Assembly (NCBI GenBank): GCA_963668115.1
Contig: OY764147.1
Location: 1,928,345 to 1,992,344, forward strand
Direction of reading: 5' to 3'
Length of the DNA: 64,000 nt
From: Dehalococcoidia bacterium
Lineage (GTDB): Bacteria > Chloroflexota > Dehalococcoidia > Plut-88900
Positions 1,900-62,373 of the stretch are shown here, in pieces (the stretch's first letter is position 1; each line of letters begins with the position of its first letter). The notes beneath the pieces are model-generated. The model worked only from the letters and a program-made list of their open reading frames with translations, did not search any database and was not told where the DNA came from. A program made the position numbers and the translations under genes.

Positions 1900-2021
1900 G
1901 GACACCACTCCGTTCCGTTCGGTCGACCCTTCGACTCCGCTCAGGGCGAACGGAACCCCCACCCCGCGGGATGGATTCACGCCAATGGCGCATCTTCGAC
2001 CCGACTACTCGGGAATGACGG
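1900..2021 (+). repeat. MITE-like nested-hairpin repeat, copy B (122 bp, identical to copy A; period 250 bp)
   Basis: Identical to 1650..1771. The 128-bp spacer 1772..1899 carries a 28-bp module (1820..1847) that recurs in reverse complement inside mnmG. Confidence 0.85.
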
Positions 2022-21280: not shown

Positions 21281-21616
21281 CTAACGCCGTAATGCTAGAC
21301 GCTCTGCGGCCAACCGGTTCATACTGACTCCGGCTTCGGCGGCATCCATAGCGAGGGAGCGGTGGGTGTCGGGTGGGATGCGAAGTGTGAGAGTCCCGCT
21401 GTAGCGTCGTGTGGAAATCGGCTCAGGGACCGGCTTGCCCTCCTCACGTAACCATCGGATCGAGAAGGCCACCAGCTCACGGATGCCTGCGAATGCCTTT
21501 TCCGGCGTGTCGTCCAGGTGGCTGAGGGAGCCGAACTCGGAGCACAGCCCGACGAACTCCTCGTCCTCCTCGGACCAGAGGACTCGGTAAGCGTATCGGT
21601 CGGCGATTTCAGGCAT
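21281..21616 (-). CDS. hicB: HicB-family antitoxin (UPF0150 N-domain plus C-terminal ribbon-helix-helix), orphan
   Basis: YRVLWSEEDEEFVGLCSEFGSLSHL HicB N-domain; C-terminal TLTLRIPPDTHRSLAMDAAEAGVSMNRLAAERL RHH; no HicA ORF in the 58-bp upstream gap. Confidence 0.7.
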   Translation of the reverse strand: MPEIADRYAYRVLWSEEDEEFVGLCSEFGSLSHLDDTPEKAFAGIRELVAFSIRWLREEGKPVPEPISTRRYSGTLTLRIPPDTHRSLAMDAAEAGVSMNRLAAERLALRR

Positions 21617-38998: not shown

Positions 38999-40072
38999 CT
39001 AGCAATCAGCCAATGGGAGTTCGGAGAGGTCATTGCTGCGGGCATAATGTAGGAGTCGGGGTATACAGCCGGCAAGACGATTTCCTCCAGCGATATACAG
39101 AGAATTAAGCTCAGACAACTTGCCCAATTCCGGCGGTATCTCTCCGCTCAACTTGTTGTAGTTGAGCCATAATGTTTCCAACTTGGAAAGGTTTCCCAAT
39201 TCCGGCGGTATCTCTCCCGTTAGCTCATTCTCACGGAGATTCAACTCTTCTAGGTTGGAGAGTTCACTCAGTTCGGGCGGTATCTCCCCGCTTAAGTTAT
39301 TATCCCAGAGGCTCAGGCGCTCCAAGCTGAAAAGCTTGCCTAATTCCGGGGGTATCTCCCCGCTTAAGTTATTATCCCAGAGGCTCAGGCGCTCCAAGCT
39401 GAAAAGCTTGCCTAATTCCGGGGGTATCTCCCCGCTTAACCCTTCGAAACCGAGATCCAGTGCCACAACCCGGTCATTCACGGCGGTTACGCCGTCCCAT
39501 TCGCCAATGGGTTTATCGCTTAGCCAGTTTTCGTTACTGTCCCAACTCGGGCCATTCGTAGCGTTGTACAAGGTAATCAAAACTTCCCTATCAGATTCGG
39601 GAGTATGCCAGCAAGGTGGCAGCTCAAGGGATTCTCCCCATTCGGATAACTGATCTTTGTGTAACTCGTCCCATTCAGATGGTATCTCTCCACACAATTC
39701 GTTAAAGCTGAGAGACAGTGATTCCAAGTTGGCAAGTTTGCCTAGTTCCGACGGTATTCGCCCGCTCAACTCATTGTCATCAAGCCACAAAACTTTTAGG
39801 TTGGAGAGTCTACCTAGTTCCGGTGGTATTTCCCCACTCAACTCGTTCCAACTGAGATTCAATACCACAACACGGCCGTTTTCAGTGATGACACCATCCC
39901 ATTCGCCAATGGGCTTATCGCTCAGCCAATTGTCATTATGCCTCCAATCCGGGCCATTTGTAGCGTTATACAAGGTGACCAAAACTTCCCTGTCCGACTC
40001 AGGAGTATCCCCGCAGGCTGACAAAATAATGGACGTTACGCAAATTATCGCCAGTAAGACAACGATCAACAT
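38999..40072 (-). CDS. Leucine-rich-repeat lipoprotein (plant-type LRR units L..LSGEIPPELG), internally duplicated two-domain architecture
   Basis: Signal peptide plus lipobox (ILSAC); two TPESDREVL(V/I)TLYNATNGP...W domain starts; about ten 24-aa LRR units; low-GC region. Confidence 0.8.
   Translation of the reverse strand: MLIVVLLAIICVTSIILSACGDTPESDREVLVTLYNATNGPDWRHNDNWLSDKPIGEWDGVITENGRVVVLNLSWNELSGEIPPELGRLSNLKVLWLDDNELSGRIPSELGKLANLESLSLSFNELCGEIPSEWDELHKDQLSEWGESLELPPCWHTPESDREVLITLYNATNGPSWDSNENWLSDKPIGEWDGVTAVNDRVVALDLGFEGLSGEIPPELGKLFSLERLSLWDNNLSGEIPPELGKLFSLERLSLWDNNLSGEIPPELSELSNLEELNLRENELTGEIPPELGNLSKLETLWLNYNKLSGEIPPELGKLSELNSLYIAGGNRLAGCIPRLLHYARSNDLSELPLADC
39291..39434. 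repeat. Perfect 72-bp x2 tandem repeat inside the LRR gene (two identical 24-aa LRR units)
   Basis: The 72-bp unit tctccccgcttaagttattatcccagaggctcaggcgctccaagctgaaaagcttgcctaattccgggggta occurs twice consecutively. Confidence 0.85.
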
Positions 40073-53308: not shown

Positions 53309-55366
53309 CTAGGTTGCCTCAACCCTCTCCCGCCCCCGCTCCAAATGCACCAGCAGCAGGCTGATGTCCGAGGTCCTCACCCCCGGCACCCGGGATGCCT
53401 GCCCCACCGTCAGCGGCACGAAGCGGCCTAGGTTCTCCCGGGCCTCGTTCGAAAGGCCCTTGATCTCCCCGTAGTCCACGTCCTGCGGAATCGGTCTCTG
53501 CTCCAGCCTGCGTATCCTCTCCACCTCCCGGCCCTGACGCTCGATGTAGTCCTGGTACTTGGCCTCGATCTCCACCTGCTCCCTCTCCTCCTCCCCCAGT
53601 CCCTCGTCCCCCAGGCCTAGCTCTACCGCCGTCTGATACCCGACCTCGGGCCTGCGCAGGAACTCCATCCCCGTGACCGCCTTCCGAACGGGCGTCAGCC
53701 CGATGCTTACCAGGTGAGGGTCTATGCTTCCGTCCTGCGGCAGATACGTCTTGCCCAGCCTTTCCATCTCCCGGGTCACCCGGCTACGCTTCTCCTCCAC
53801 CGTCCTGTATTGCCCCTCGCTGAGCAACCCAACGTCATAGCCGATGGGAGCGAGACGGAGGTCGGCGTTGTCCTGACGTAACAGGAGCCGGTGCTCGGCC
53901 CGAGACGTGAGCATCCGATACGGCTCGAAGTGGTCCCGGGTCACCAGGTCGTCTATCATCACCCCCAAATAAGCCTGGTCCCGACGCAATACCATCGGCC
54001 CCCGGCCCTTCACCCGAAGCGCCGCGTTTATCCCCGCCACTATCCCCTGCCCCGCCGCCTCCTCGTACCCCGATGTCCCGCACACCTGCCCCGCCAGGAA
54101 CAGGTTTGGAATCAGCTTTGTCTCCATCGTCGCGTTGATCTGGTCCGTCAACACGAAGTCGTACTCTATGGCGTAGCCGTGCTTCAGTATCTCGGCCCGT
54201 TCCAGCCCCGCTATCGACCTCACGAAGGCTTCCTGCACGTCCTCCGGAAGGCTGGTATTAGCGCCCTGGAGGTACACCTCGTCGGTCTGCCAACCCTCGG
54301 GTTCCAGGAACAGGCCATGTGACTCCTTGTGGGCGAAGCGCACAACCTTGTCCTCGATGGACGGGCAGTACCGTGGCCCGACCCCCTCTATCGAGCCGTT
54401 GAACATCGGCGCCCGGTCCAGGTTTGCAGTGATAAGTTCGTGGGTCATGGGATTCGTGCTCACCAGGTAGCAGGCCATCTGCGGCCGCCACCCCGACTCC
54501 TGGGGCTTGGGATATACCGGATTAGGCGTAGGAAAGCGCAGTGAATCGCCGTTGGCGCCCCAGAAGCTGAAGTGCAGGGGCGTCGGGCTGCCGGGCTGTA
54601 TCCTGGCCTTTGAGAAGTCGATAGTGCGAGCGTCCAGCCGGGGCGGCGTCCCTGTCTTGTGTCTTCCGAGAACGAACCCCAACTGCTTCAACGACTCCGA
54701 TATCTCCGACGCCGCGGGCTCCCCCGCCCGACCCCCCGTGTACGCCCGCTCACCCATGATGATCTTTCCCGCCAGCGACGTCCCTGTAGTCAGCACCACC
54801 GTCCTCCCCACATATGCCTCCCCGGACTTCGTCTCCAAACTGATCCACCCACCCTCAGACAATCCGTCATTCCCACCCCCGAGCCGGAATCCATCCCCTC
54901 CCCCAATATCACTACGACGCCTATCTCCCATGTCATTCCGATGCCCCGCGAGGAATCTGGGGTGGGGTCCGCCTCCTCCCCCCAGCACAATCCCCACAAC
55001 CAAATCCTCCCTGGCCGTCAACCCCTCCTGCCTCTCCAGCGTCCTCCGCATCTCCCGCGCATACATCTCCTTATCCGACTGGGCACGAAGTGCTTGCACC
55101 GCCGGTCCCTTCCCTGTGTTCAGCATACGGATCTGGATGAACGTCTTGTCCGTGTTCCGGCCCATCTCCCCACCCAGCGCATCCACTTCCCGGGCCAGGT
55201 GTCCCTTCGCCGGCCCCCCTATCGACGGGTTGCAAGGCATCAGTGCGATATGGTCCAGCTTCATCGTCAGGACCAGGGTATCGCAACCCATCCGCGCCGC
55301 CGCCAAAGCTGCCTCGCACCCCGCATGCCCCGCCCCGATAACAATTACGTCGTAGGTCTTGGTCAT
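53309..55366 (-). CDS. mnmG: tRNA uridine 5-carboxymethylaminomethyl modification enzyme MnmG (GidA), carrying a roughly 45-aa Gly/Arg-rich in-frame insertion
   Basis: [28 protein letters not shown]-terminus and GidA core motifs; 685 aa versus about 630 typical. Confidence 0.85.
54864..54985 (-). repeat. Repeat-family-derived segment inserted in-frame within mnmG
   Basis: Begins with the ccgtcattccc terminal module; 54931..54958 is an exact 28-bp reverse-complement match to 1820..1847; ggggtgggg module at 54960. Confidence 0.7.
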
Positions 55367-55444
55367 TATGTTGGAAATATTAATGCGCTACCTCCCCATG
55401 AGGTCAAGGATAGAGGCAAGGTGGGTATGGTGTAGAATAACAGC

Positions 55445-55711
55445 ATGCCGTCCGTAGAGTCGGGTCTACAATACACCCGACATGCTCTGCAGGCCATTGA
55501 AGAGCGCAGAATCCAGTTGAACTGGGTTGAGGAGACAATAACAAAACCCGAGTTGCGCACTAACGACCCCGAAGATGAAGAGTTGGAACGCTTCTATAAA
55601 CGCATCCCCGAATATGGGGATCGGGTGTTACGGGCAGTTGTTAACACTCGGGAATCCCCCTGGCGTGTAATAAGCGCTTTCTTTGATGGCAGAATGAGAA
55701 ATAGATTATGA
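55445..55711 (+). CDS. DUF4258-family protein (putative toxin-like partner of DUF2283)
   Basis: 88 aa; overlaps the downstream gene by ATGA; the DUF4258+DUF2283 arrangement is a recognised two-gene module. Confidence 0.5.
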   Translation: MPSVESGLQYTRHALQAIEERRIQLNWVEETITKPELRTNDPEDEELERFYKRIPEYGDRVLRAVVNTRESPWRVISAFFDGRMRNRL

Positions 55712-55908
55712 AGCTATACGTCGATAAGGAAGCCGACGCCCTATACCTGCGTCTGGACGATTCTCCGATATTGGAATCCGAAGAAGTCTCCGCAGGTGTT
55801 GTTCTCGACTACAACGAGGCGAGGGATGTAGTGGGTGTCGAGATGCTAAACCTCTCAAAGCGTTCATCAAGGCTCAACCTCTCCGCCCTTCAGTTCGAGA
55901 CCGTCTAG
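55708..55908 (+). CDS. DUF2283-family small protein
   Basis: MKLYVDKEADALYLRLDD...GVEMLN pattern typical of DUF2283. Confidence 0.55.
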   Translation: MKLYVDKEADALYLRLDDSPILESEEVSAGVVLDYNEARDVVGVEMLNLSKRSSRLNLSALQFETV

Positions 55909-55975
55909 AGACTAGTCGGGCCTCCGGCCCTTCACCGTCAACCCTTACCTCGCCGCTCTGCCGTATAATTCATCT

Positions 55976-57103
55976 ATGGCAACTGAAATCCAGACCACCC
56001 CCGCCCCCACCCGCGCCCCGACCACCACCAAGCCCACCGTCGCCGCCGTCTTCACCTCCCCCGACACCGTCCTGGACGACTACGTCCGCCTCGCCGAGCT
56101 TGCCGGGATGGAAGACCATCTCCCCAGGGACCTCCCAACCCTCCTCAAGATAAACATCTCCTGGCAGTACTACTACCCCGCATGCTCCACCCCACCCTGG
56201 CAGATCGAGGGGACGGTGAAGGCCCTACAGGCCAACGGCTACAACGACCTCATCGCCGCTCACAACGGCACCGTGGTCGTCGACGCCCGGGAAGGCGAGG
56301 TTCGCAACAAGCAGAAGGTCGTCACCGACAAGTACGACCTCCCCAACATGCACCTCGAAGAGGACCCCGTTCGCTGGATCGAGTACCGGCCCAGGGCCAA
56401 AATGCTGGCCCTGGACGAAATCTTCCCCGACGGAATCCAGATCCCCGAGCCTTTCATCGGCAAGAACATAGTCCAGCTCCCGACCATGAAGACCCACGTC
56501 TTCACGAAGATGACCGGCGCCATGAAGAACGCCTTCGGGGGCTTGCTGAACAGGAAAAGGCACTACACCCACTCCGTCATCCACGAGACCCTCGTCGACC
56601 TCCTCGCCATCCAGAAGGAGATCCACCCCGGCATCTTCGCCATGATGGACGGCGCCTTCGCCGGCGACGGCCCCGGGCCCCGAGCCATGCGCTGGCACGT
56701 CAAAAACCTCCTCCTCGCCAGCGGCGACCAGGTCGCCATCGACGCCGTCGCCGCCAGGCTCATGGGTTTCGACCCCATGTCCATCAAGTTCATCCGCCTC
56801 GCCCACGACGCCGGCCTCGGGTGCGGAGACCCGAGGGAAATCGAGATAGCGGGAGAGGACCTGTCGGGGGTGAACTGGGGGTTCAGTGGGTCGGAGAACA
56901 CCTTTGCCAGCCGCGGCCAGAAGCTGATTTACTGGGGCCCGCTGAAGCCCCTGGAGAAGCTGCTGCTCAGGTCGCCGCTGGTGCCCTGGGCCTACCTCGC
57001 GTCGAACCTGTACCACAACGTCTTCTGGATGAACCTCGTCGGCAAGGGCAGGATCAGGAAGGCTATGAAGACGGGCTGGGGCAAGCTCTTCCTGAGCTAC
57101 TGA
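55976..57103 (+). CDS. DUF362-domain protein
   Basis: 375 aa; LPTMKTHVFTKMTGAMKNAFGGL motif recalled as DUF362-like; Thr/Pro-rich N-terminus. Confidence 0.45.
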   Translation: MATEIQTTPAPTRAPTTTKPTVAAVFTSPDTVLDDYVRLAELAGMEDHLPRDLPTLLKINISWQYYYPACSTPPWQIEGTVKALQANGYNDLIAAHNGTVVVDAREGEVRNKQKVVTDKYDLPNMHLEEDPVRWIEYRPRAKMLALDEIFPDGIQIPEPFIGKNIVQLPTMKTHVFTKMTGAMKNAFGGLLNRKRHYTHSVIHETLVDLLAIQKEIHPGIFAMMDGAFAGDGPGPRAMRWHVKNLLLASGDQVAIDAVAARLMGFDPMSIKFIRLAHDAGLGCGDPREIEIAGEDLSGVNWGFSGSENTFASRGQKLIYWGPLKPLEKLLLRSPLVPWAYLASNLYHNVFWMNLVGKGRIRKAMKTGWGKLFLSY

Positions 57104-57408
57104 GACCCGCCGCCCTCTTCCTCGTCAAAGTCCTCGTCGCTGAACACCCCGACCTCCCGACCCTGGTACACCGCGACTATGAAGTCGCCCCGCGAAGCGT
57201 CGGCGGTCATCACCAGCTCTTCGTCGATGGTGTCTATCAGCTCCTGGACGCCTTCCTGCGTGACGTTCTCCAGCACGCATAGCGTACCGTGGACTACGTT
57301 GGAGCCGAAATGCAGGTCTATCCGACCCGCCGTGCTCTCGTCGTCGATTATCGTATAGGTCTCGGACTGGGGCGTACGGCATTCTCTTTCGAATCGGTAG
57401 GGGGCCAT
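57097..57408 (-). CDS. Hypothetical small protein with an acidic C-terminal tail
   Basis: 103-aa ORF; convergent 7-bp overlap with the DUF362 stop; no family recognised. Confidence 0.35.
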   Translation of the reverse strand: MAPYRFERECRTPQSETYTIIDDESTAGRIDLHFGSNVVHGTLCVLENVTQEGVQELIDTIDEELVMTADASRGDFIVAVYQGREVGVFSDEDFDEEEGGGSQ

Positions 57409-57429: not shown

Positions 57430-58701
57430 CTAGGGCCGGACGTGTCCGCGGCCCAGGATTATCCACTTGTAGGATGTCATTTCCCGGAGCCCCATCGGGC
57501 CCCGAGCGTGCATTTTCTGTGTGCTGATCCCCACCTCCGCCCCCAGCCCGAACTGCCCGCCGTCCGTGAACCGCGTGCTCGCGTTCACGAAAACCGCCGC
57601 GGCATCAACCTCGTCCAGGAACCTCTGCGCCGCCGAGTAGTCCTCGGTGAGGATCGCCTCCGAATGCCCCGACCCGTATGCCTCGATGTGGGCCAGGGCC
57701 TCGTCCATGTCGTCGACTACCTTCACCGAGGCGACCAGGGCCAGGAACTCCATCCCCCAGTCCGACTCCACCGCAGCCGACACACCGCCCATCCCATTTA
57801 TCACGTCGAAAGCCCTCTCGTCGCACCGGATCTCGACGCCCTTCTCGCCCCAGGCGCGGGCTATCCGGGGAAGATATTCTTGGGCGACTGAGGAGTGCAC
57901 GATGAGGGTGTCCAGGGCGTTGCAGGTGGAGGGGCGTTGTACCTTCGCATTGTAGGCTATGGCCACCGCGCTGTCGAGGTTGGCGGACCTGTCCACGTAG
58001 GTGTGGCAGACCCCCACCCCGCCCGCCACCACGGGCATGGAAGCGTTCGAGTCCACGTACCGGATGAAGTCCTCGCTGCCCCGGGGCACCATCAGGTCGA
58101 TTATGCCCTTCATCTCCAGCATCTCCCCGACCAGGGCCCGGTCCGTGGAGTCGACGAACTGCACCGCCTCCCCCGGGCCCCCCGCCTCGACCAGGCTGTC
58201 CCGCACGATGGATGCCAGCAGCCGGTTCGACCGGATGGCCTCCTTGCCGCCCCTCAGCAGCACCGCGTTCCCCGACTTCAGGCATAAGCAGGATATATCA
58301 ATTGTCACGTTGGGCCGGCTCTCGTATATCGCCCCGATAAGCCCCAGCGGCACCCGACGCTTCCCCACCTGCAACCCGTTGGGCAGTGTCCGCATGTCGA
58401 ACGTCTCCCCGACGGGATCGGGCAGCCCGGCGATGCTCTCCACGTCCTCGGCGAGGGCCCGGATGCGGTCATGGGTGAGGAGCAGCCGGTCCAGCAGCGA
58501 CTCCGAAAGTCCCGACTCGGCGCTGGAGTCATAGTCCTGCCGGTTCGCCTCGACAATCTCGTCCTGCCGCTCCACCAACGCCCCGGCGATGTTCAGCAAC
58601 GCCCGGTCCTTAACCGCACTGGAAGCCCGACCCAGCTCCCGCCCCGCCCCCCGCGCCGCCAGCGCCTGCGCCCTCAGGTCTTGTTTAACCGTGGTGGTCA
58701 T
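57430..58701 (-). CDS. proA: Glutamate-5-semialdehyde dehydrogenase (gamma-glutamyl phosphate reductase)
   Basis: Start at ATG 58701 (AGGTG RBS); ALDH-fold ProA motifs (PLGLIGAIYESRPNVT, catalytic Cys region STCNALDTL). Confidence 0.85.
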   Translation of the reverse strand: MTTTVKQDLRAQALAARGAGRELGRASSAVKDRALLNIAGALVERQDEIVEANRQDYDSSAESGLSESLLDRLLLTHDRIRALAEDVESIAGLPDPVGETFDMRTLPNGLQVGKRRVPLGLIGAIYESRPNVTIDISCLCLKSGNAVLLRGGKEAIRSNRLLASIVRDSLVEAGGPGEAVQFVDSTDRALVGEMLEMKGIIDLMVPRGSEDFIRYVDSNASMPVVAGGVGVCHTYVDRSANLDSAVAIAYNAKVQRPSTCNALDTLIVHSSVAQEYLPRIARAWGEKGVEIRCDERAFDVINGMGGVSAAVESDWGMEFLALVASVKVVDDMDEALAHIEAYGSGHSEAILTEDYSAAQRFLDEVDAAAVFVNASTRFTDGGQFGLGAEVGISTQKMHARGPMGLREMTSYKWIILGRGHVRP

Positions 58702-58901
58702 AGCGACACCTATTATCAGACCTCCACCTTTGAGGGGCAAGAACGGTCGGGCATGCTGTCAATTAGCTCCATCGTCCGCACACTCACCGTGCACCTCCAC
58801 TTACGGATTACGTTAGTTAAAATATATCAGACCGTGGGTCTAAGCACCGCCTAAGACTACGCCGCTTACTGGCAAGAATAACACTCGAGGAAGCACGACC
58901 A

Positions 58902-59933
58902 TTGGCTAAGAACAAGCGCACGTTGCCCGCTCCAAACACTTGGGACAATTCAAATCAGCACTGGGTTTCGCAGTTTCTCTTAAAAGGCTTTGGCCTTCCA
59001 GGCAATGCAAGTCATGTATATACCTTGGATAAACGCACTCTTTCTACCACGATTCGATCTGTAGACGACGTTGCTTCTAAAGTGAATTTGCTCACAGCCC
59101 AGGACAATAGCCGCTTAACTAGTATTGAGCGCAGCATTACCGGAGCGGTTCAACGCCTTCGTAAAGGCCACCAAATTCACCTGGCAGTAAAGGAACGACA
59201 ATTACTCAACGACCTAGTACTGTCTCTAATCCTGGCTGACCCTTATTCTGGAGTGAAAAGAGAAAAGCTACGCAAGGACGTCGTTCAGAATACGGCCAAC
59301 ATGATTGCCGAGATTGCATTTCGCAATGGGTTGCCAGTCAGTAGGCCTCGACTACAATCCTCAATGCACCCACTTCTACCGGAGGATGTTCTAACGCTGG
59401 CGCTGGACTCCGAAAACAGCCTGACCTCCATCGCCTTAAGCCTTATGGGTTTGAGTATCCATAAGGCAACAAAACCCCTCGTGATTGGTGATTCTCCGGT
59501 GATGATTGCTCGAGCGCGGCGTAACAGTGTCCCAAGCCTGTTAAATTTTGGCAGCGAGATAGCATTGCCTATAGCCTATAACTGCGTCTTGGTCTACGAC
59601 TGGGTTACTGAACCAAACACGGTGACTCTAGCGGATCCCCTGACCAACCAGCAAAGTCGACTAGTAGGACACTATTACTGGAGTATTTCAAGGTGCCGGT
59701 ACGTGTTTAGTCGAACACGCGACGCACTTTACGAAGCTAGGATGCCATACGAGTCATTAGTTGAGTCGACGGGCTCAGTTACTCCTTCCACAGGTTGGCA
59801 TCTTATGCAGGAAATAGCCAAGAATAGTGAAATACGGCGACAGCTGCAGGATGACCAGGAACGCCTAAAGTTTGAGAGGGGGATCAATACTCTTGCGACC
59901 CGAGGTGACGCCCGACCTCTGTATGAGTATTGA
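58902..59933 (+). CDS. DUF4238-family protein on the opposite strand between proB and proA, low GC
   Basis: 343 aa, TTG start; N-terminal HWVSQFLLKGF resembles the DUF4238 'H.VPQFYL..F' motif; GC about 47% versus roughly 62% in the flanks. Confidence 0.5.
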   Translation: MAKNKRTLPAPNTWDNSNQHWVSQFLLKGFGLPGNASHVYTLDKRTLSTTIRSVDDVASKVNLLTAQDNSRLTSIERSITGAVQRLRKGHQIHLAVKERQLLNDLVLSLILADPYSGVKREKLRKDVVQNTANMIAEIAFRNGLPVSRPRLQSSMHPLLPEDVLTLALDSENSLTSIALSLMGLSIHKATKPLVIGDSPVMIARARRNSVPSLLNFGSEIALPIAYNCVLVYDWVTEPNTVTLADPLTNQQSRLVGHYYWSISRCRYVFSRTRDALYEARMPYESLVESTGSVTPSTGWHLMQEIAKNSEIRRQLQDDQERLKFERGINTLATRGDARPLYEY

Positions 59934-60056
59934 CTATTCGTCTCTCGTCCACCTAAGGCCGGATCTTGCCCAACAACCGGCCTAGCTCACACCGGGTTTT
60001 CATAAACGGTTGAGCCGCTCGTGATAGCGCTCTATGTGTGGATATTTCGCCATAAC

Positions 60057-61199
60057 CTACAACAACACCAAATTATCCCGGTGCACCAGCTCCGCCCCGT
60101 ACTCATACCCGAGAATTTCGAATATCCTACCCGACCTCTCCCCCGCAATCGCCCTCGCATCCTCCGCATCGTAGTTTGACAGGCCGCAGGCTATCCGGTT
60201 CCCGTCCCCGTCCTCCACGACCAGCACGTCGCCCCGCTCAAAGCTCCCCGACACCTCCGTCACCCCCGCAGGCAACAGGCTCTTCCCTCCCTTCACCACC
60301 GCCGACGCCGCTCCCCCGTCCACCCGCACCGACCCCCGGGAGTTCAGCCCGCTCAGCATCCACCGCTTCCGGCTCTCCATCTTCGTCGTATGGCTCGGGA
60401 AGAACGTCCCCAGCCCCTCGCCCCCGGCCAGCCTCGGGATCACGTTCTCCAGCCGCCCCTTGGCGATCACAACGTCCACCCCCGACGCCGTCGCCAGGCT
60501 CGCAGCCTGCAGCTTGGTCACCATCCCCCCGACCGCCTTGCTGCTCTTGGTGCCCGCCGCCAGCGAGGTTATGGAGTCGTCGATGGTCTCGACCTTCGGG
60601 ATTAGCTCGGCCTGAGGGTCGTGCATCGGGTCCGAGGTGTACAGCCCGGCCACGTCCGAAAGTATCATCAGCAGGTCCGCATCTACGAGGTTCGCCACCA
60701 TCGCTGAAAGGTTGTCGTTGTCCCCGAACCGGGCCCCCCTTATCTCCTCGACGGCGACCACGTCGTTCTCGTTGACAATCGGCTGCACCCCGAGCTCCAG
60801 CAACGTGTTAAGGGTGTTGCGCACGTTCAGATACCCCAGCCTGTCCGACAAGTCCCCCCTCGACACCAGCGCCTGCGCCACCGTTATCCCGTGCTCCCCA
60901 AACAGCCTGTCGTAGGCCTGCATCAGCCGGCCCTGTCCCACCGACGCCAGCACCTGCTTCAGCGGCACCCCCCGATGCTCCGGCACCTGACCCAGTATCT
61001 CCCGCCCCGACGCCATCGCCCCCGATGACACCAGCACCACCTCCATCCCGTCCCGCCTGATCTCCGCTATCTGCCTCACCAGCGAGGCCATGCAGTCCAG
61101 GTCGAGGCCGCGGTCGGGCCCCGCTAGCAAGTTGCTCCCCAGCTTGACCACCACCCTCCGGTACGCGCCCGATTCTAGGTTGTTATTCGACTTAGCCAT
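60057..61199 (-). CDS. proB: Glutamate 5-kinase (with C-terminal PUA domain)
   Basis: Start at ATG 61199; VVVKLGSNLL, amino-acid-kinase fold, C-terminal PUA domain (VDGGAASAVVKGGKSLLPAGV). Confidence 0.85.
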   Translation of the reverse strand: MAKSNNNLESGAYRRVVVKLGSNLLAGPDRGLDLDCMASLVRQIAEIRRDGMEVVLVSSGAMASGREILGQVPEHRGVPLKQVLASVGQGRLMQAYDRLFGEHGITVAQALVSRGDLSDRLGYLNVRNTLNTLLELGVQPIVNENDVVAVEEIRGARFGDNDNLSAMVANLVDADLLMILSDVAGLYTSDPMHDPQAELIPKVETIDDSITSLAAGTKSSKAVGGMVTKLQAASLATASGVDVVIAKGRLENVIPRLAGGEGLGTFFPSHTTKMESRKRWMLSGLNSRGSVRVDGGAASAVVKGGKSLLPAGVTEVSGSFERGDVLVVEDGDGNRIACGLSNYDAEDARAIAGERSGRIFEILGYEYGAELVHRDNLVLL

Positions 61200-61324
61200 T
61201 TCCTGCTTCGACAAGGAATCGAGTATAGCACCGGCCATTCAAAACAGTGGTGGGAAGGGGCAATGCTCCTTCCCACCACTGGACTAATTTACAACTGTAG
61301 CTTCCACTTCAGAGCGAGAATTCG

Positions 61325-61405
61325 TCCCCTTGGGGTGGGGCATTCCGCTCGCCCTGAGCGGAGTCGAAGGGTCTCAAGAGCGGAATGGGTGGGGTGTCCC
61401 GCTCC
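61325..61405 (-). repeat. Nested-hairpin repeat, copy C (reverse orientation relative to copies A/B)
   Basis: Core gccctgagcggagtcgaagggtc identical to the reverse complement of the copy A core; outer stem cattccgctc/gagcggaatg differs from A by compensatory changes. Confidence 0.8.
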
Positions 61406-61491
61406 GCTATCTCGTTGGTATACAAAGGTCTCGTCGAGGGAAAGGAGGCAGAAAGCCACACTTACCCTACCCAGTACCCCTTGAGGTCTCC

Positions 61492-62373
61492 CTACGTTGT
61501 CCCGTTGGAGCCGTCCTCCTGCGCAGTCGCAGCCAGGTTCATGAACGGCTTCAGCACGTTCGTGAACTCCATCGGGAAAATGAACTTGGTGGACGGGCTC
61601 GCCCCGATGTCCTTCAACGTCTCGAAGTACTGTAGGCTCATCGTCTTGGAGTCGACCCCCTGTGCCACCCTGTAGATCTGGTCCAGCGCATTGCTGAATC
61701 CCTCGGCGTTCAGAATCGCCGCCTGTCTGTTGCCCTCGGCCTTCAAAATTTCTGCTTGTCTCAGTCCTTCGGCACTCAGGATGGCAGCCTGCTTCTGGCC
61801 CTCGGCGACGGTGATGTTCGCCTCTTTCTGGCCGTCCGCCTCGGTGACCACCGCCCGGCGTTCCCGCTCGGCGGCCATCTGCCTGTTCATGGCGTGCTGT
61901 ATCTCGGCAGGCGGGTCGATCTCCCGTATCTCGACCGCCGTGACCTTCACCCCCCACCTCCCCGTCACCTCGTCCAGCTTAACCCGCAGGATTTGGTTGA
62001 TCTCCTCCCTCTTTGCCAGGACGTCGTCCAGCGGAATATCCCCGACCACCGCCCTCAGCGTTGTCGTCGCCATTCCGACAATCGCCGCCCTGAAGTCCTG
62101 CACCTCCAGCACGCTCTTCTCCGCCTCGTGGTCCAGCACCTTGTAGTAGATCAGGAAGTCGATGTCTATCGGCGCGTTGTCCTTGGTGATGTTCGTCTGT
62201 CGGGCGACGTCAATGACGTCTTCTCGGAGGTCGACCTTCTGGAAGCTGTCGACGAACGGGATTAGCAGCCGAAGCCCCGCCCCCTTCAGCCCGAAGAACT
62301 TGCCCAGCCTGAAGGGCACCATCCTTTCGTACTGCTTCACTATGATTACCGGAAATATAACGGGTGTAGCCAT
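61492..62373 (-). CDS. SPFH/band-7 (stomatin/prohibitin-like) protein
   Basis: 293 aa; SPFH domain followed by coiled-coil AEGQKQAAILSAEG repeats; downstream of nfeD. Confidence 0.85.
   Translation of the reverse strand: MATPVIFPVIIVKQYERMVPFRLGKFFGLKGAGLRLLIPFVDSFQKVDLREDVIDVARQTNITKDNAPIDIDFLIYYKVLDHEAEKSVLEVQDFRAAIVGMATTTLRAVVGDIPLDDVLAKREEINQILRVKLDEVTGRWGVKVTAVEIREIDPPAEIQHAMNRQMAAERERRAVVTEADGQKEANITVAEGQKQAAILSAEGLRQAEILKAEGNRQAAILNAEGFSNALDQIYRVAQGVDSKTMSLQYFETLKDIGASPSTKFIFPMEFTNVLKPFMNLAATAQEDGSNGTT

Follow-up and report, generated by a model that had tools for sequence, protein, structure and literature searches.

A DUF4238 gene cassette between remnants of a Type IIG restriction-modification gene at the proB-proA locus of a Dehalococcoidia genome

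In the window, the 64,000-nucleotide stretch of Dehalococcoidia DNA analysed here, proB and proA are separated by a gap of 1,355 bp (58702..60056) that carries a gene on the opposite strand. Has a foreign gene broken the proBA operon, as an earlier note on this DNA had claimed, or did it come to lie between the two genes in some other way?

Anatomy and foreign origin of the gap

The core flanks, the gene and its surrounding cassette are:

57430..58701, minus strand: proA (glutamate-5-semialdehyde dehydrogenase), right-hand core flank; PRK00197, 582 bits, and TIGR00407, 500 bits (NCBIfam)
58785..59954, plus strand: mobile DUF4238 cassette (117 bp upstream, gene, 21 bp downstream), delimited by homology to locus L081
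58887..58893, plus strand: ribosome-binding site GAGGAAG, spaced 8 nt from the TTG start codon, conserved in L081
58902..59933, plus strand: DUF4238-family gene, 343 aa, putative single-gene anti-phage system (Pfam PF14022, homologues, dN/dS, AF2)
60057..61199, minus strand: proB (glutamate 5-kinase, PUA domain), left-hand core flank; TIGR01027, 409 bits (NCBIfam), AA_kinase and PUA (Pfam)

The layout described in the earlier note, in which a low-GC segment of 1.35 kb splits proB from proA and encodes, on the opposite strand, a 343-aa DUF4238-like ORF with a TTG start, was borne out by these coordinates and by the Pfam match. The contrast in base composition also stands but its figures (about 47% GC against about 62%) do not, the measured values being 49.8% against 65–66%: GC is 0.498 in the gap, 0.664 in proA and 0.654 in proB, and the gap lies ~3 SD under the mean of all 1,355-bp windows of the 64 kb (mean 0.604, SD 0.035). 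An alternative start for proB is the ATG at 61238. Amino acid identity to the five closest sequenced relatives (L001–L005) is 85–96% for ProA and 86–97% for ProB, and synteny with them is unbroken on either side of the locus.

The match to PF14022 (DUF4238) scored 30.7 bits (E = 2.8e-7; residues 18–232 on profile positions 1–237 of 281), only 3.7 bits above the gathering cut-off of 27 bits. There are 54 homologue clusters, down to an E-value of 1e-23, and nearly all carry a precomputed PF14022 assignment. The homologue at L081, which is 84% identical, has an ATG at the same start codon preceded by the same GAGGAAG site, and the dN/dS ratio between the two genes is 0.16, i.e., they are under purifying selection. 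The ORF at 58902..59933 is a real gene, and the alternative that it is non-coding, raised in the earlier note, does not hold.

The homology to L081 (positions 507–1676) covers the whole cassette, with 84.6% nucleotide identity over 1,172 bp, and the L081 copy adjoins pyruvate:ferredoxin oxidoreductase genes, not proBA. The cassette is low in GC in both hosts (0.49 in the window; 0.50 against 0.59 in L081). It could be supposed that the gene is native, inherited vertically and lost by the relatives, and its presence in the window genome, but nothing more, fits such a history. That history is scarcely credible given a GC3 of 0.50 against 0.88 in the flanks, the absence of DUF4238 from the proB-proA site in all 80 related proA loci (where a copy of native GC would have spoken for it), the location of the closest homologue at a different locus, again low in GC for its host, and the remnants of another gene on both sides of the cassette (see below). 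The proposal of horizontal acquisition is upheld by the first three of these points.

Target-site duplications, which the earlier note had suggested looking for at the cassette ends, are not there: the search for these and for terminal repeats returned only short two-copy repeats, none of them at both ends. One candidate, repeat D3 (58784–58795 / 60076–60087), was dismissed as a chance occurrence, its second copy lying within proB and off the junction. No recombinase ORFs were found in 55–64 kb, nor among the scanned cargo ORFs of the relatives (L009, L026 and L046 lay outside the scan). A transposon, IS or integrative element would be recognised by target-site duplication, terminal inverted repeats and a gene for a transposase or integrase, and the cassette has none of these. 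Searches for close relatives at the site returned none from IMG/VR viral contigs and three distant loci from JGI metagenomes. An imperfect 13-bp direct repeat, too short to weigh, can be seen by eye near TCCAC at both cassette ends.

Remnants of a Type IIG gene beside the cassette

Three of the five closest relatives (L002–L004) carry in the gap a Type IIG restriction-modification (R-M) gene of ~1,025 aa, co-oriented with proBA and starting 3 nt from the proB stop. The enzymes of L002 and L004 contain the Pfam domains Type_ISP_C (325 and 309 bits), ISP_coupler, N6_Mtase and Eco57I, and that of L002 matches the PADLOC model REase_MTase_IIG over its full length (994 bits). From these domains they are predicted to be Type IIG / Type ISP-related enzymes, single polypeptides with coupler, gamma-class N6-methyltransferase and Type ISP specificity domains. 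The L002 and L004 enzymes are 86.5% identical, a divergence that matches those of ProA (87.0%) and ProB (87.9%) and so argues for ancestral occupancy of the gap. The target-recognition domain has been swapped between the close relatives L003 and L002. In the window, both ends of this gene are still present:

58716..58794, minus strand: 3' remnant of the Type IIG gene, last 25 codons and stop (tblastn, DNA homology)
58785..58794, no strand: left junction, ~10 bp, CACCGTGCAC on the plus strand and GTGCNCGGTG on the minus strand as aligned
59955..60016, no strand: junction segment of 62 bp, defined by the ends of blastn tracts, matching neither the relatives nor L081
60017..60053, minus strand: 5' remnant of the Type IIG gene, ATG and ~12 codons, MAKYPHIERYHE (alignment, tblastn)

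The 3' remnant is identical at 25 of 25 residues to positions 998–1022 of the L002 enzyme (tblastn, E = 2e-11), and DNA homology with L002–L004 runs from proA up to 58794. At the other end, DNA homology runs from proB to 60017, and the 5' remnant begins at exactly the same distance from the proB stop (3 nt) as the intact gene of L002–L004, with 14 of 17 residues identical to the enzyme N-terminus (tblastn). Since only 13 and 25 codons are left, the Type IIG gene is non-functional in the window. Similar traces occur elsewhere: L001 keeps a 17-residue C-terminal Type IIG remnant, and L036 one that derives from another cargo gene. On the left side, the tract shared with L002–L004 (ending at 58794) overlaps that shared with L081 (starting at 58785), and the ~10 bp that the cassette has in common with the 3' end of the Type IIG gene are possibly a microhomology crossover point, although so short a match may also be due to chance.

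Because both ends of the Type IIG gene flank it, the cassette replaced that gene. The claim that the insertion disrupted the proBA operon is therefore not sustained, as the two genes were already split in the ancestor by the co-oriented Type IIG gene, the ends of which survive beside the cassette. The alternative, a de novo insertion of foreign DNA into an intact, adjacent proBA pair with disruption of the operon, would agree with an insert that is antisense and low in GC, and with the adjacency of proB and proA in many related species. It is contradicted by the remnants, which sit at the exact L002–L004 positions, and the gap was already 1.6–3.1 kb long in all five of the closest relatives; with no target-site duplication either, it is very improbable. 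In the comparison with empty sites suggested in the earlier note, a spacer of ≤150 bp was found in 33 of 63 related species, and the closest five are all filled.

The same observations bear on the possibility of an assembly artefact, in which the cassette would have been wrongly joined to proBA. In its favour, the window belongs to a metagenome-assembled genome, and a metagenome project of the same type yielded the 84% homologue. Nevertheless, an identical protein is on record (P0001; longest contig ~3.0 Mb according to the collection record), synteny with the five relatives extends without a break across both flanks, both junctions lie, precisely placed, inside the remnants of one gene, and the other known copy of the cassette is 15% divergent, so that such an error is most improbable.

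The proB-proA spacer across Dehalococcoidia

Sixty-three Dehalococcoidia species with proB upstream of proA were surveyed. Besides the 33 with short spacers, the spacing is 150–500 bp in six and >500 bp in 24, and every gap >500 bp is lower in GC than its proB and proA. None of these 24 contains DUF4238. The cargo that could be named was as follows:

L002–L004: Type IIG enzyme
L016, L021, L025: NotI-like restriction endonuclease (REase) and D12 methyltransferase (MTase)
L019: ThaI REase and MTase
L058: MTase and Type II REase
L034, L054, L065, L068: N4/N6-MTase-Mrr fusions
L066: GmrSD
L040, L055: DUF3800, with a weak match to the PADLOC candidate PDC-M04A in L040 (L055 lay outside the PADLOC scan)
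L027: lone MTase

Unannotated occupants include proteins of 284 aa (L005:4018–4872), 268 aa (L036:2572–3378), 267 aa (L049:3181–3984), 404 aa (L075:4673–5887), 311 aa (L068:4898–5833) and 229 aa (L034:5212–5901), and a pair of small ORFs in L001. At least 12 unrelated cargo gene families are found at the site; all identifiable cargo ORFs of the relatives are co-oriented with proBA, and only a few nucleotides separate the cargo from the genes on either side. Components of R-M or Type IV systems occur in 14 of the 24 occupied relatives and DUF3800 in two, while the cargo of the remaining eight has no recognisable defence domain, so that 'defence hotspot' is a statement about the majority. With the same core flanks around variable, non-homologous content, the spacer is a hotspot, and a previously undescribed one; its content is rich in known defence systems as judged from counts at the site itself, set against no genome-wide background. 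Thus ~40% of the sampled Dehalococcoidia species have foreign cargo of one or two genes at this site, mostly for restriction and a third of it unknown. The site provides an anchor-based route to candidate defence genes in a large, uncultivated class whose phages have hardly been studied. Some proA loci have no proB upstream (L007, L013, L015 and others); these had been considered as giant islands and were set aside, as they represent a different synteny. In L006, an exception, a DUF3644 gene and an N4/N6 methylase-like gene (N-terminal motif only) precede proA at a contig end.

Like the cDHS1/2 sites of P. aeruginosa (Johnson et al. 2023, PMC10250203) and the defence-island hotspots of E. coli (PMC10121019), the proB-proA site has fixed core-gene flanks, no integrase inside, and variable low-GC content in which known defence systems stand beside many unknowns. 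It differs in being much smaller (0.6–3.6 kb with one or two genes, where the published sites have a median of 6–26 kb; PMC10250203, PMC10121019), in lying within a biosynthetic operon whose strand nearly all of the tightly packed cargo shares, and in spanning a whole class (ProA identity down to ~62%) rather than one species. Taken jointly, these features may describe a class-wide, recombinase-free, operon-embedded defence hotspot, in which cargo would hitch-hike on housekeeping expression while the essential flanks would anchor interspecies homologous exchange and make clean loss costly; we offer this tentatively, as a reading with slightly less than an even chance of being right. If it is, the unannotated occupants (those of L005, L036, L049, L075, L068 and L034, and the L001 pair) would be new defence genes, and the DUF4238 subfamily the first antisense, self-promoted exception at the site.

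The history that best accounts for the locus as a whole, and which we regard as probable, is that the DUF4238 cassette replaced an ancestral Type IIG gene in the proB-proA defence hotspot. On this account small defence genes have repeatedly arrived and been exchanged in the short spacer in Dehalococcoidia, and the ~1,025-aa Type IIG gene would already have occupied it in the ancestor that the window genome shares with L001–L005, on the operon strand, with 3 nt separating it from the proB stop and 14 nt from the proA start. In the window lineage, ~3 kb of that gene gave way to the foreign cassette of ~1.17 kb, inverted and with its own 117-bp upstream region, leaving the first ~13 and last 25 codons behind. 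The exchange was presumably by illegitimate recombination, possibly guided by microhomology, rather than by transposition or site-specific integration, and conserved sequence in proB and proA may then have allowed the new arrangement to spread by homologous recombination. Since DUF4238 took over the place of an older restriction enzyme gene, the puzzling 'split operon' would be routine turnover of defence genes at a hotspot. Allelic substitution of R-M genes (Furuta et al. 2010, PMC2853133) is similar in that an unrelated defence gene is swapped at the same locus with short remnants left; the insertion of R-M genes into operon-like structures and, as in L003 and L002, the swapping of target-recognition domains have parallels in the same study, whereas the replacing gene here is not R-M and is inverted relative to the operon. 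The intact Type IIG genes, the specificity-domain-swapped allele, the replaced gene with its remnants and the empty sites together form a natural series for swaps that occur without mobile-element machinery.

How proA would be expressed beside an inverted gene is suggested by one further feature:

58712..58740, minus strand: promoter-like element TTGCCC-17 nt-GATAAT, with 10 nt between its end and the proA ATG (consensus scan and conservation)

Both hexamers and their 17-nt spacing are kept in the window and L001–L005 (6/6), in spite of variation in the 17 nt between them. When the gap was scanned for promoters and terminators, the counts were not above shuffled expectation, so that only the conservation pattern of this proA-proximal element was used. 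The pattern leaves the balance about even that it is an internal proA promoter, insulating proA from whatever occupies the gap. Transcription of proA would then most likely start from this element, kept within the 3' remnant. The gene proB is now convergent with the cassette. The 62-bp junction segment between the convergent DUF4238 gene and proB contains a GC-rich hairpin (59956–59983); folding of this spacer gave z-scores of −1.2 to −1.6, which are not significant.

The DUF4238 protein and its possible role

The earlier note held that DUF4238 has no known function. This is correct for its chemistry and needs correction for its phenotype, as one DUF4238 protein gives strong resistance to T7 (Rousset et al. 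2022, PMC9122126); the member tested, against eight phages, was an E. coli P2-hotspot protein (PMC9122126). From its family membership and genomic company, the window gene seems reasonably likely to be a single-gene anti-phage defence in its host organism. Homologues have as neighbours CBASS, Kiwa, Abi_2, Type ISP-like enzymes, HicB, PIN, HNH, integrases and IS elements. Together with the R-M and Type IV genes at the site in relatives, the CBASS, Kiwa and Abi_2 neighbours agree with the earlier suggestion of defence-type cargo. Comparison of the neighbours of five homologues revealed no conserved partner or lost upstream gene for the cassette, and no domain fusions of DUF4238 occur among the matches listed (the best 150 of 1,031 relatives). 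A partnership with Type ISP-like enzymes was considered for L085, L086 and L087 and rejected: the neighbouring ~1,030-aa enzymes are 22–25% identical to the L002–L004 gene or unrelated to it, which indicates generic co-location in islands.

Alternatively, DUF4238 could be selfish or maintenance cargo (toxin-like, addiction, anti-plasmid or anti-MGE), or a non-defence traveller with defence islands. Knowledge of the family stops at phenotype, short of chemistry, and comes from a single member and eight phages (PMC9122126); the protein matches no defence model, and the neighbours of homologues include toxin–antitoxin components (PIN, HicB) and IS elements. Yet the sole tested member is protective (PMC9122126), no cognate antitoxin-like partner was seen, restriction systems fill the slot in relatives, and the gene is under purifying selection, which together render this alternative improbable, if less so than those considered above. 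The PADLOC check proposed in the earlier note found no matching model (PADLOC-DB v2, E ≤ 0.1), and PADLOC v2 may hold no DUF4238 model. The PHROGs and NCBIfam profile libraries and a tblastn search of 50,697 phage records likewise returned no match.

The protein is standalone, single-domain and soluble, and its AF2 model is of good quality (pLDDT 83, pTM 0.77). Foldseek against BFVD returned one significant match, V9IQH5 of the P2-like phage Smp131 (E = 5.4e-6, probability 1.0, 317 columns), with a low TM-score of 0.35–0.39. We take V9IQH5 to be the Smp131 DUF4238 protein Smp_43, the sole annotated 298-aa protein of that phage. Smp_43 scores 27.5 bits on PF14022, and hhalign of the subfamily profile against it gave E = 0.08, aligning only the D-x-P strand region. 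Searches of the PDB by sequence profile, with narrow and broad alignments, returned nothing under E = 0.5, and by fold the best E-value was 1.0, so solved structures show no likeness to the model and the mechanism is not inferable by homology. As sequence similarity to a phage DUF4238 protein is statistically nil, the tie to the tested E. coli protein consists of Pfam membership and one fold match of low TM-score.

The system known to DefenseFinder as Rst_DUF4238, from the E. coli P2-like prophage hotspot (PMC9122126), is likewise a standalone Pfam DUF4238 protein of ~300–350 aa carried without a partner gene as hotspot cargo; the window protein has the His and D-x-P motifs of the family and a fold that matches the Smp131 member. 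In contrast to Rst_DUF4238, it is very divergent, with no BLAST or hhalign similarity to the phage member, belongs to an environmental subfamily with an extra C-terminal region, and is encoded on the chromosome of an uncultivated member of the Chloroflexota, between housekeeping genes and not in a prophage, where it is known from sequence alone.

The subfamily is tight (44 representatives at E ≤ 1e-30), and its extra C-terminal region ends in a long helix. Both the N-terminal His motif (QHWxxQFLxxF) and the GDSPV (D-x-P) motif are present in the window protein. In an alignment of 51 sequences of the broad family, including Smp_43, H20 is invariant and E76, D197, P199 and P223 are conserved at ≥90%. 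His20, Glu76 and Asp197-x-Pro199 might point to an enzyme, hydrolase-type or metal-dependent, in preference to a passive binder, but this is doubtful. With this candidate His/Glu/Asp site, a divergent and well-modelled subfamily is added to the DUF4238 defence family.

The DUF4238 cassette between proB and proA

The proB–proA interval of the window is 1,355 bp in length and is occupied by an ORF that runs opposite to the two proline genes:

57430..58701, minus strand: proA (NCBIfam equivalog model, 582 bits)
58902..59933, plus strand: DUF4238 ORF, 343 aa, TTG start, the one long ORF of the interval
60057..61199 (alternative ATG at 61238), minus strand: proB (NCBIfam equivalog model, 409 bits)

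The earlier note had described a proBA pair split by a low-GC DUF4238 ORF on the opposite strand with a TTG start, and both its coordinates and its description hold on re-analysis. A ribosome-binding site (GAGGAAG) is found 8 nt before the TTG. The GC content of the interval (0.498) is well below that of proA (0.664) and proB (0.654), and about 3 SD under the average of every window of that length in the 64 kb (mean 0.604, sd 0.035), while GC3 is 0.50 for the ORF and 0.88 for the flanks. The Pfam DUF4238 match (30.7 bits, E 2.8e-7) only just exceeds the curated cut-off of 27. The existence of 54 homologue clusters, a family alignment that begins at residue 1, an ATG at the equivalent codon and an identical ribosome-binding site in the closest homologue (P0002, 84% amino-acid identity), and a dN/dS of 0.16 between these two genes show that the ORF is a genuine gene.

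P0002 is carried on a 6.9-kb contig, L081, where its neighbours are not proBA but genes for pyruvate:ferredoxin oxidoreductase, lipoate-protein ligase and GroES. The nucleotide homology between the window and L081 (84.6% over 1,172 bp) delimits the following element:

58785-59954: DUF4238 cassette shared with L081, consisting of the gene with 117 bp preceding its start codon and a further 21 bp on the downstream side

The cassette is foreign to both hosts, as it is low in GC in each of them.

In three of the closest relatives (L002–L004), the gap is filled by a Type IIG restriction-methylase gene. DNA homology of the window to these loci extends 40 bp beyond the proB stop, up to 60017, and on the other side reaches 58794, 93 bp ahead of the proA ATG; the two extensions correspond to where the Type IIG gene starts and ends. 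Next to proB the window has TAG-GTT-ATGGCGAAATATCCACACATAGAGCGCTATCACGAG..., read as MAKYPHIERYHE, and 14 of 17 residues of this remnant match the N-terminus of the enzyme, beyond which the sequence is unrelated and meets a stop. Next to proA, the final 25 codons match those of L002 at 100% identity (E 2e-11). Between L002 and L004, the Type IIG proteins share 86.5% identity, in line with ProA (87.0%) and ProB (87.9%), so the gene has passed vertically since the common ancestor of these two genomes, also an ancestor of the window genome. In the window lineage, about 3 kb of the Type IIG gene was lost and the DUF4238 cassette came in, a direction that is clear because the end-pieces cannot rebuild an intact gene. 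The remnants on both sides point to replacement rather than to the de novo disruption of an intact proBA operon envisaged in the earlier note.

At the proA-side junction (58785-58794, CACCGTGCAC, + strand), the homology tract of L081 type and that of Type IIG type have about 10 bp in common, which is compatible with a microhomology-mediated join, although too short for proof. The proB-side junction (59955-60016) consists of 62 bp matching neither the Type IIG relatives nor L081, and includes a GC-rich hairpin between the convergent genes. Target-site duplications, which had been suggested previously, were looked for, but neither these nor terminal inverted repeats were found for the cassette. 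A single illegitimate recombination, either in the window lineage or in an unsampled close relative, probably created the cassette allele, which could next spread by homologous recombination in the conserved proB and proA flanks.

As the cassette in the gap is antisense, proA is no longer able to rely on read-through from proB. Within the retained Type IIG 3' remnant is TTGCCC-17 nt-GATAAT, whose end is 10 nt upstream of the proA ATG. Both hexamers and their spacing are kept in the window and in the five closest relatives (L001–L005), including the two that lack the Type IIG gene, and the spacer sequence is variable. A promoter scan of the gap did not rise above shuffled expectation; the conservation pattern fits a promoter-like element, and so a putative promoter, ahead of proA. 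If true, this would account for the tolerance of any cargo at the site.

The proB–proA site in relatives

A ProA scan using one genome per species returned 80 loci, all from Dehalococcoidia or Chloroflexota MAGs, the closest by ProA identity being L001–L003 (95–96%) and L004–L005 (85%). None of the 80 encodes a DUF4238 relative. ProB is encoded upstream of proA in 63 loci, with a spacing of ≤150 bp in 33, 150–500 bp in 6 and >500 bp in 24. Empty sites, proposed as a check on insertion, are present among the wider relatives but not among the five close ones, all of which have an occupied gap (1.6–3.1 kb). In every gap >500 bp, GC is below that of proB and proA.

Cargo of the proB–proA gap in relatives (profile search of gap ORFs)
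L002, L003, L004: Type IIG / Type ISP-related restriction-methylase, 1,022–1,029 aa (Pfam Type_ISP_C, ISP_coupler, N6_Mtase, Eco57I; PADLOC REase_MTase_IIG, 994 bits)
L016, L021, L025: NotI-family endonuclease and D12 methylase
L019: ThaI endonuclease and methylase
L058: methylase and Type II endonuclease
L034, L054, L065, L068: N4/N6-methylase-Mrr fusions, 536–551 aa
L066: GmrSD (Type IV)
L040, L055: DUF3800 proteins
L027: lone methylase
L005:4018-4872, L036:2572-3378, L049:3181-3984, L075:4673-5887, L068:4898-5833, L034:5212-5901, L001:5104-5668: low-GC ORFs, proBA strand, no match

The ORFs of the last entry gave no significant Pfam match, and no PADLOC match in a scan of all but the L001 ORFs; by position, they are candidate new defence genes. 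At L006, a DUF3644 gene and a methylase-like gene (called from an N-terminal motif only) precede proA at the contig end. Every identifiable cargo ORF in the relatives is carried on the proBA strand, often a few nt from the flanking genes, and this bias is unlikely to be due to chance, since at least 12 unrelated cargo families are involved (chance of uniform orientation ~2^-12). The sole antisense occupant is the DUF4238 gene of the window. No recombinase was found in the window at 55–64 kb or in the scanned gap ORFs of relatives.

The same kind of turnover or decay is visible at other loci. L001 retains a 17-residue C-terminal Type IIG remnant beside different small ORFs, and in L036 (2456-2556) a methylase-Mrr gene survives only as its final 32 codons, directly after proB. 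The methylase of L019 (4925-5860) is broken into three reading frames, either as a possible pseudogene or through an error in sequencing, while that of L027 (1410-2411) is intact without its endonuclease. The Type IIG proteins of L003 (2912-5986) and L002 (2918-5986), whose ProA are 98% identical, share only 31–41% identity across residues ~600–900 and 80–98% elsewhere, which amounts to a target-recognition-domain swap within the hotspot gene. Allelic substitution of R-M genes, Type IIG domain swapping and R-M insertion into operon-like structures were described by Furuta et al. 2010 (PMC2853133).

The proB–proA site is built like the defence hotspots between core genes known from P. aeruginosa (PMC10250203) and E. 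coli (PMC10121019), but is miniaturised and embedded in an operon. The suggestion of foreign, defence-type cargo gains support from low GC in both hosts and from restriction genes at the same site in relatives. No description of this site was found in the literature searched. Both components are of known kinds: the gene belongs to the DUF4238 defence family, and the site to the defence hotspots that are flanked by core genes and undergo allelic substitution. The hotspot provides a discovery handle in an uncultivated class.

The DUF4238 protein

DUF4238, given in the earlier note as having no known function, has a published anti-T7 phenotype: a single DUF4238-domain protein from an E. coli P2 prophage hotspot confers strong T7 resistance, its molecular function being unknown (PMC9122126). 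A 2024 survey still placed Rst_DUF4238 among the systems not assignable to a known domain family, and for Pseudomonas it is listed as a defence system moving from one context to another (PMC12629846).

The AlphaFold2 model of the window protein is confident (pLDDT 83.4, pTM 0.77), and comprises a beta hairpin at the N-terminus, an insertion of five helices, a mixed sheet and, at the C-terminus, a long helix. Solved structures showed no resemblance (best Foldseek E 1.0; nothing below E 0.5 in PDB profile searches). The sole significant match among viral models was V9IQH5 (E 5e-6, TM 0.35–0.39), an uncharacterised 298-aa protein of the P2-like Stenotrophomonas phage Smp131. Judging from its length, this is taken to be Smp_43, the only annotated 298-aa protein of Smp131, which adjoins the integrase and has a borderline Pfam DUF4238 match (27.5 bits); sequence similarity to the window protein is otherwise negligible.

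An exhaustive profile search returned 44 representatives at E≤1e-30, which form a tight subfamily marked by a C-terminal extension. At E≤1e-3 the number rises to 1,031, and the best 150 of these are short proteins (≤398 aa) without fusions. In the broad family H20 alone is invariant, and E76, D197, P199, P223, L27 and F30 are ≥90% conserved. Homologues of 35–52% identity adjoin CBASS, Kiwa, Abi_2, a Type ISP-like enzyme, PD-(D/E)xK/Cas4, HicB, HNH, integrases and IS elements, and have no partner gene in common. On balance, the window protein is a DUF4238 member that is divergent in sequence and stands alone, and its most likely role is anti-phage defence by a single gene. Given the His/Glu/Asp set, the best guess would be that it acts as an enzyme.

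Other variable and low-GC positions

Directly downstream of proA is a 103-aa ORF (57097-57408, minus strand) that is kept in relatives; it has no Pfam match and only a weak PADLOC PD-(D/E)xK match (E 0.002). Upstream of proB, a segment of about 210 bp that is absent from all five close relatives (61286-61498, minus strand) holds a hairpin-forming dispersed repeat with the core CGCTCGCCCTGAGCGGAGTCGAAGGGTC. Together with related copies at 1675-1702 and 1925-1952 (minus strand), this makes three in the window where 0 are expected, suggestive of a small element resembling a MITE or REP.

A second small variable spot of low GC (~0.50) is located between mnmG and a DUF362 gene (55392-55963), and carries two overlapping plus-strand ORFs (55445-55711 and 55708-55908), whose DUF4258 / DUF2283 pairing resembles a toxin‒antitoxin module. 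The spot measures only ~50 bp in L001, L002–L004 retain the DUF2283 part without DUF4258, and L004 has ~1.5 kb of other sequence. Within mnmG itself (53309-55366, minus strand; 685 aa), a Gly/Arg-rich stretch at ~54870-55010, where the L004 DNA alignment breaks, looks like an insertion.

A HicB-family antitoxin-like ORF (21281-21616, minus strand) sits in a 0.42-GC pocket of a low-GC stretch at ~21.3–21.9 kb, and the adjoining small ORFs have no assignment. The lowest GC of the window (down to 0.41) is reached in an island at ~38.4–40.5 kb around a gene for a 357-aa leucine-rich-repeat protein (38999-40072, minus strand), flanked by genes for a CoA-transferase and a BtpA-family protein, and this is probably another horizontally acquired gene.
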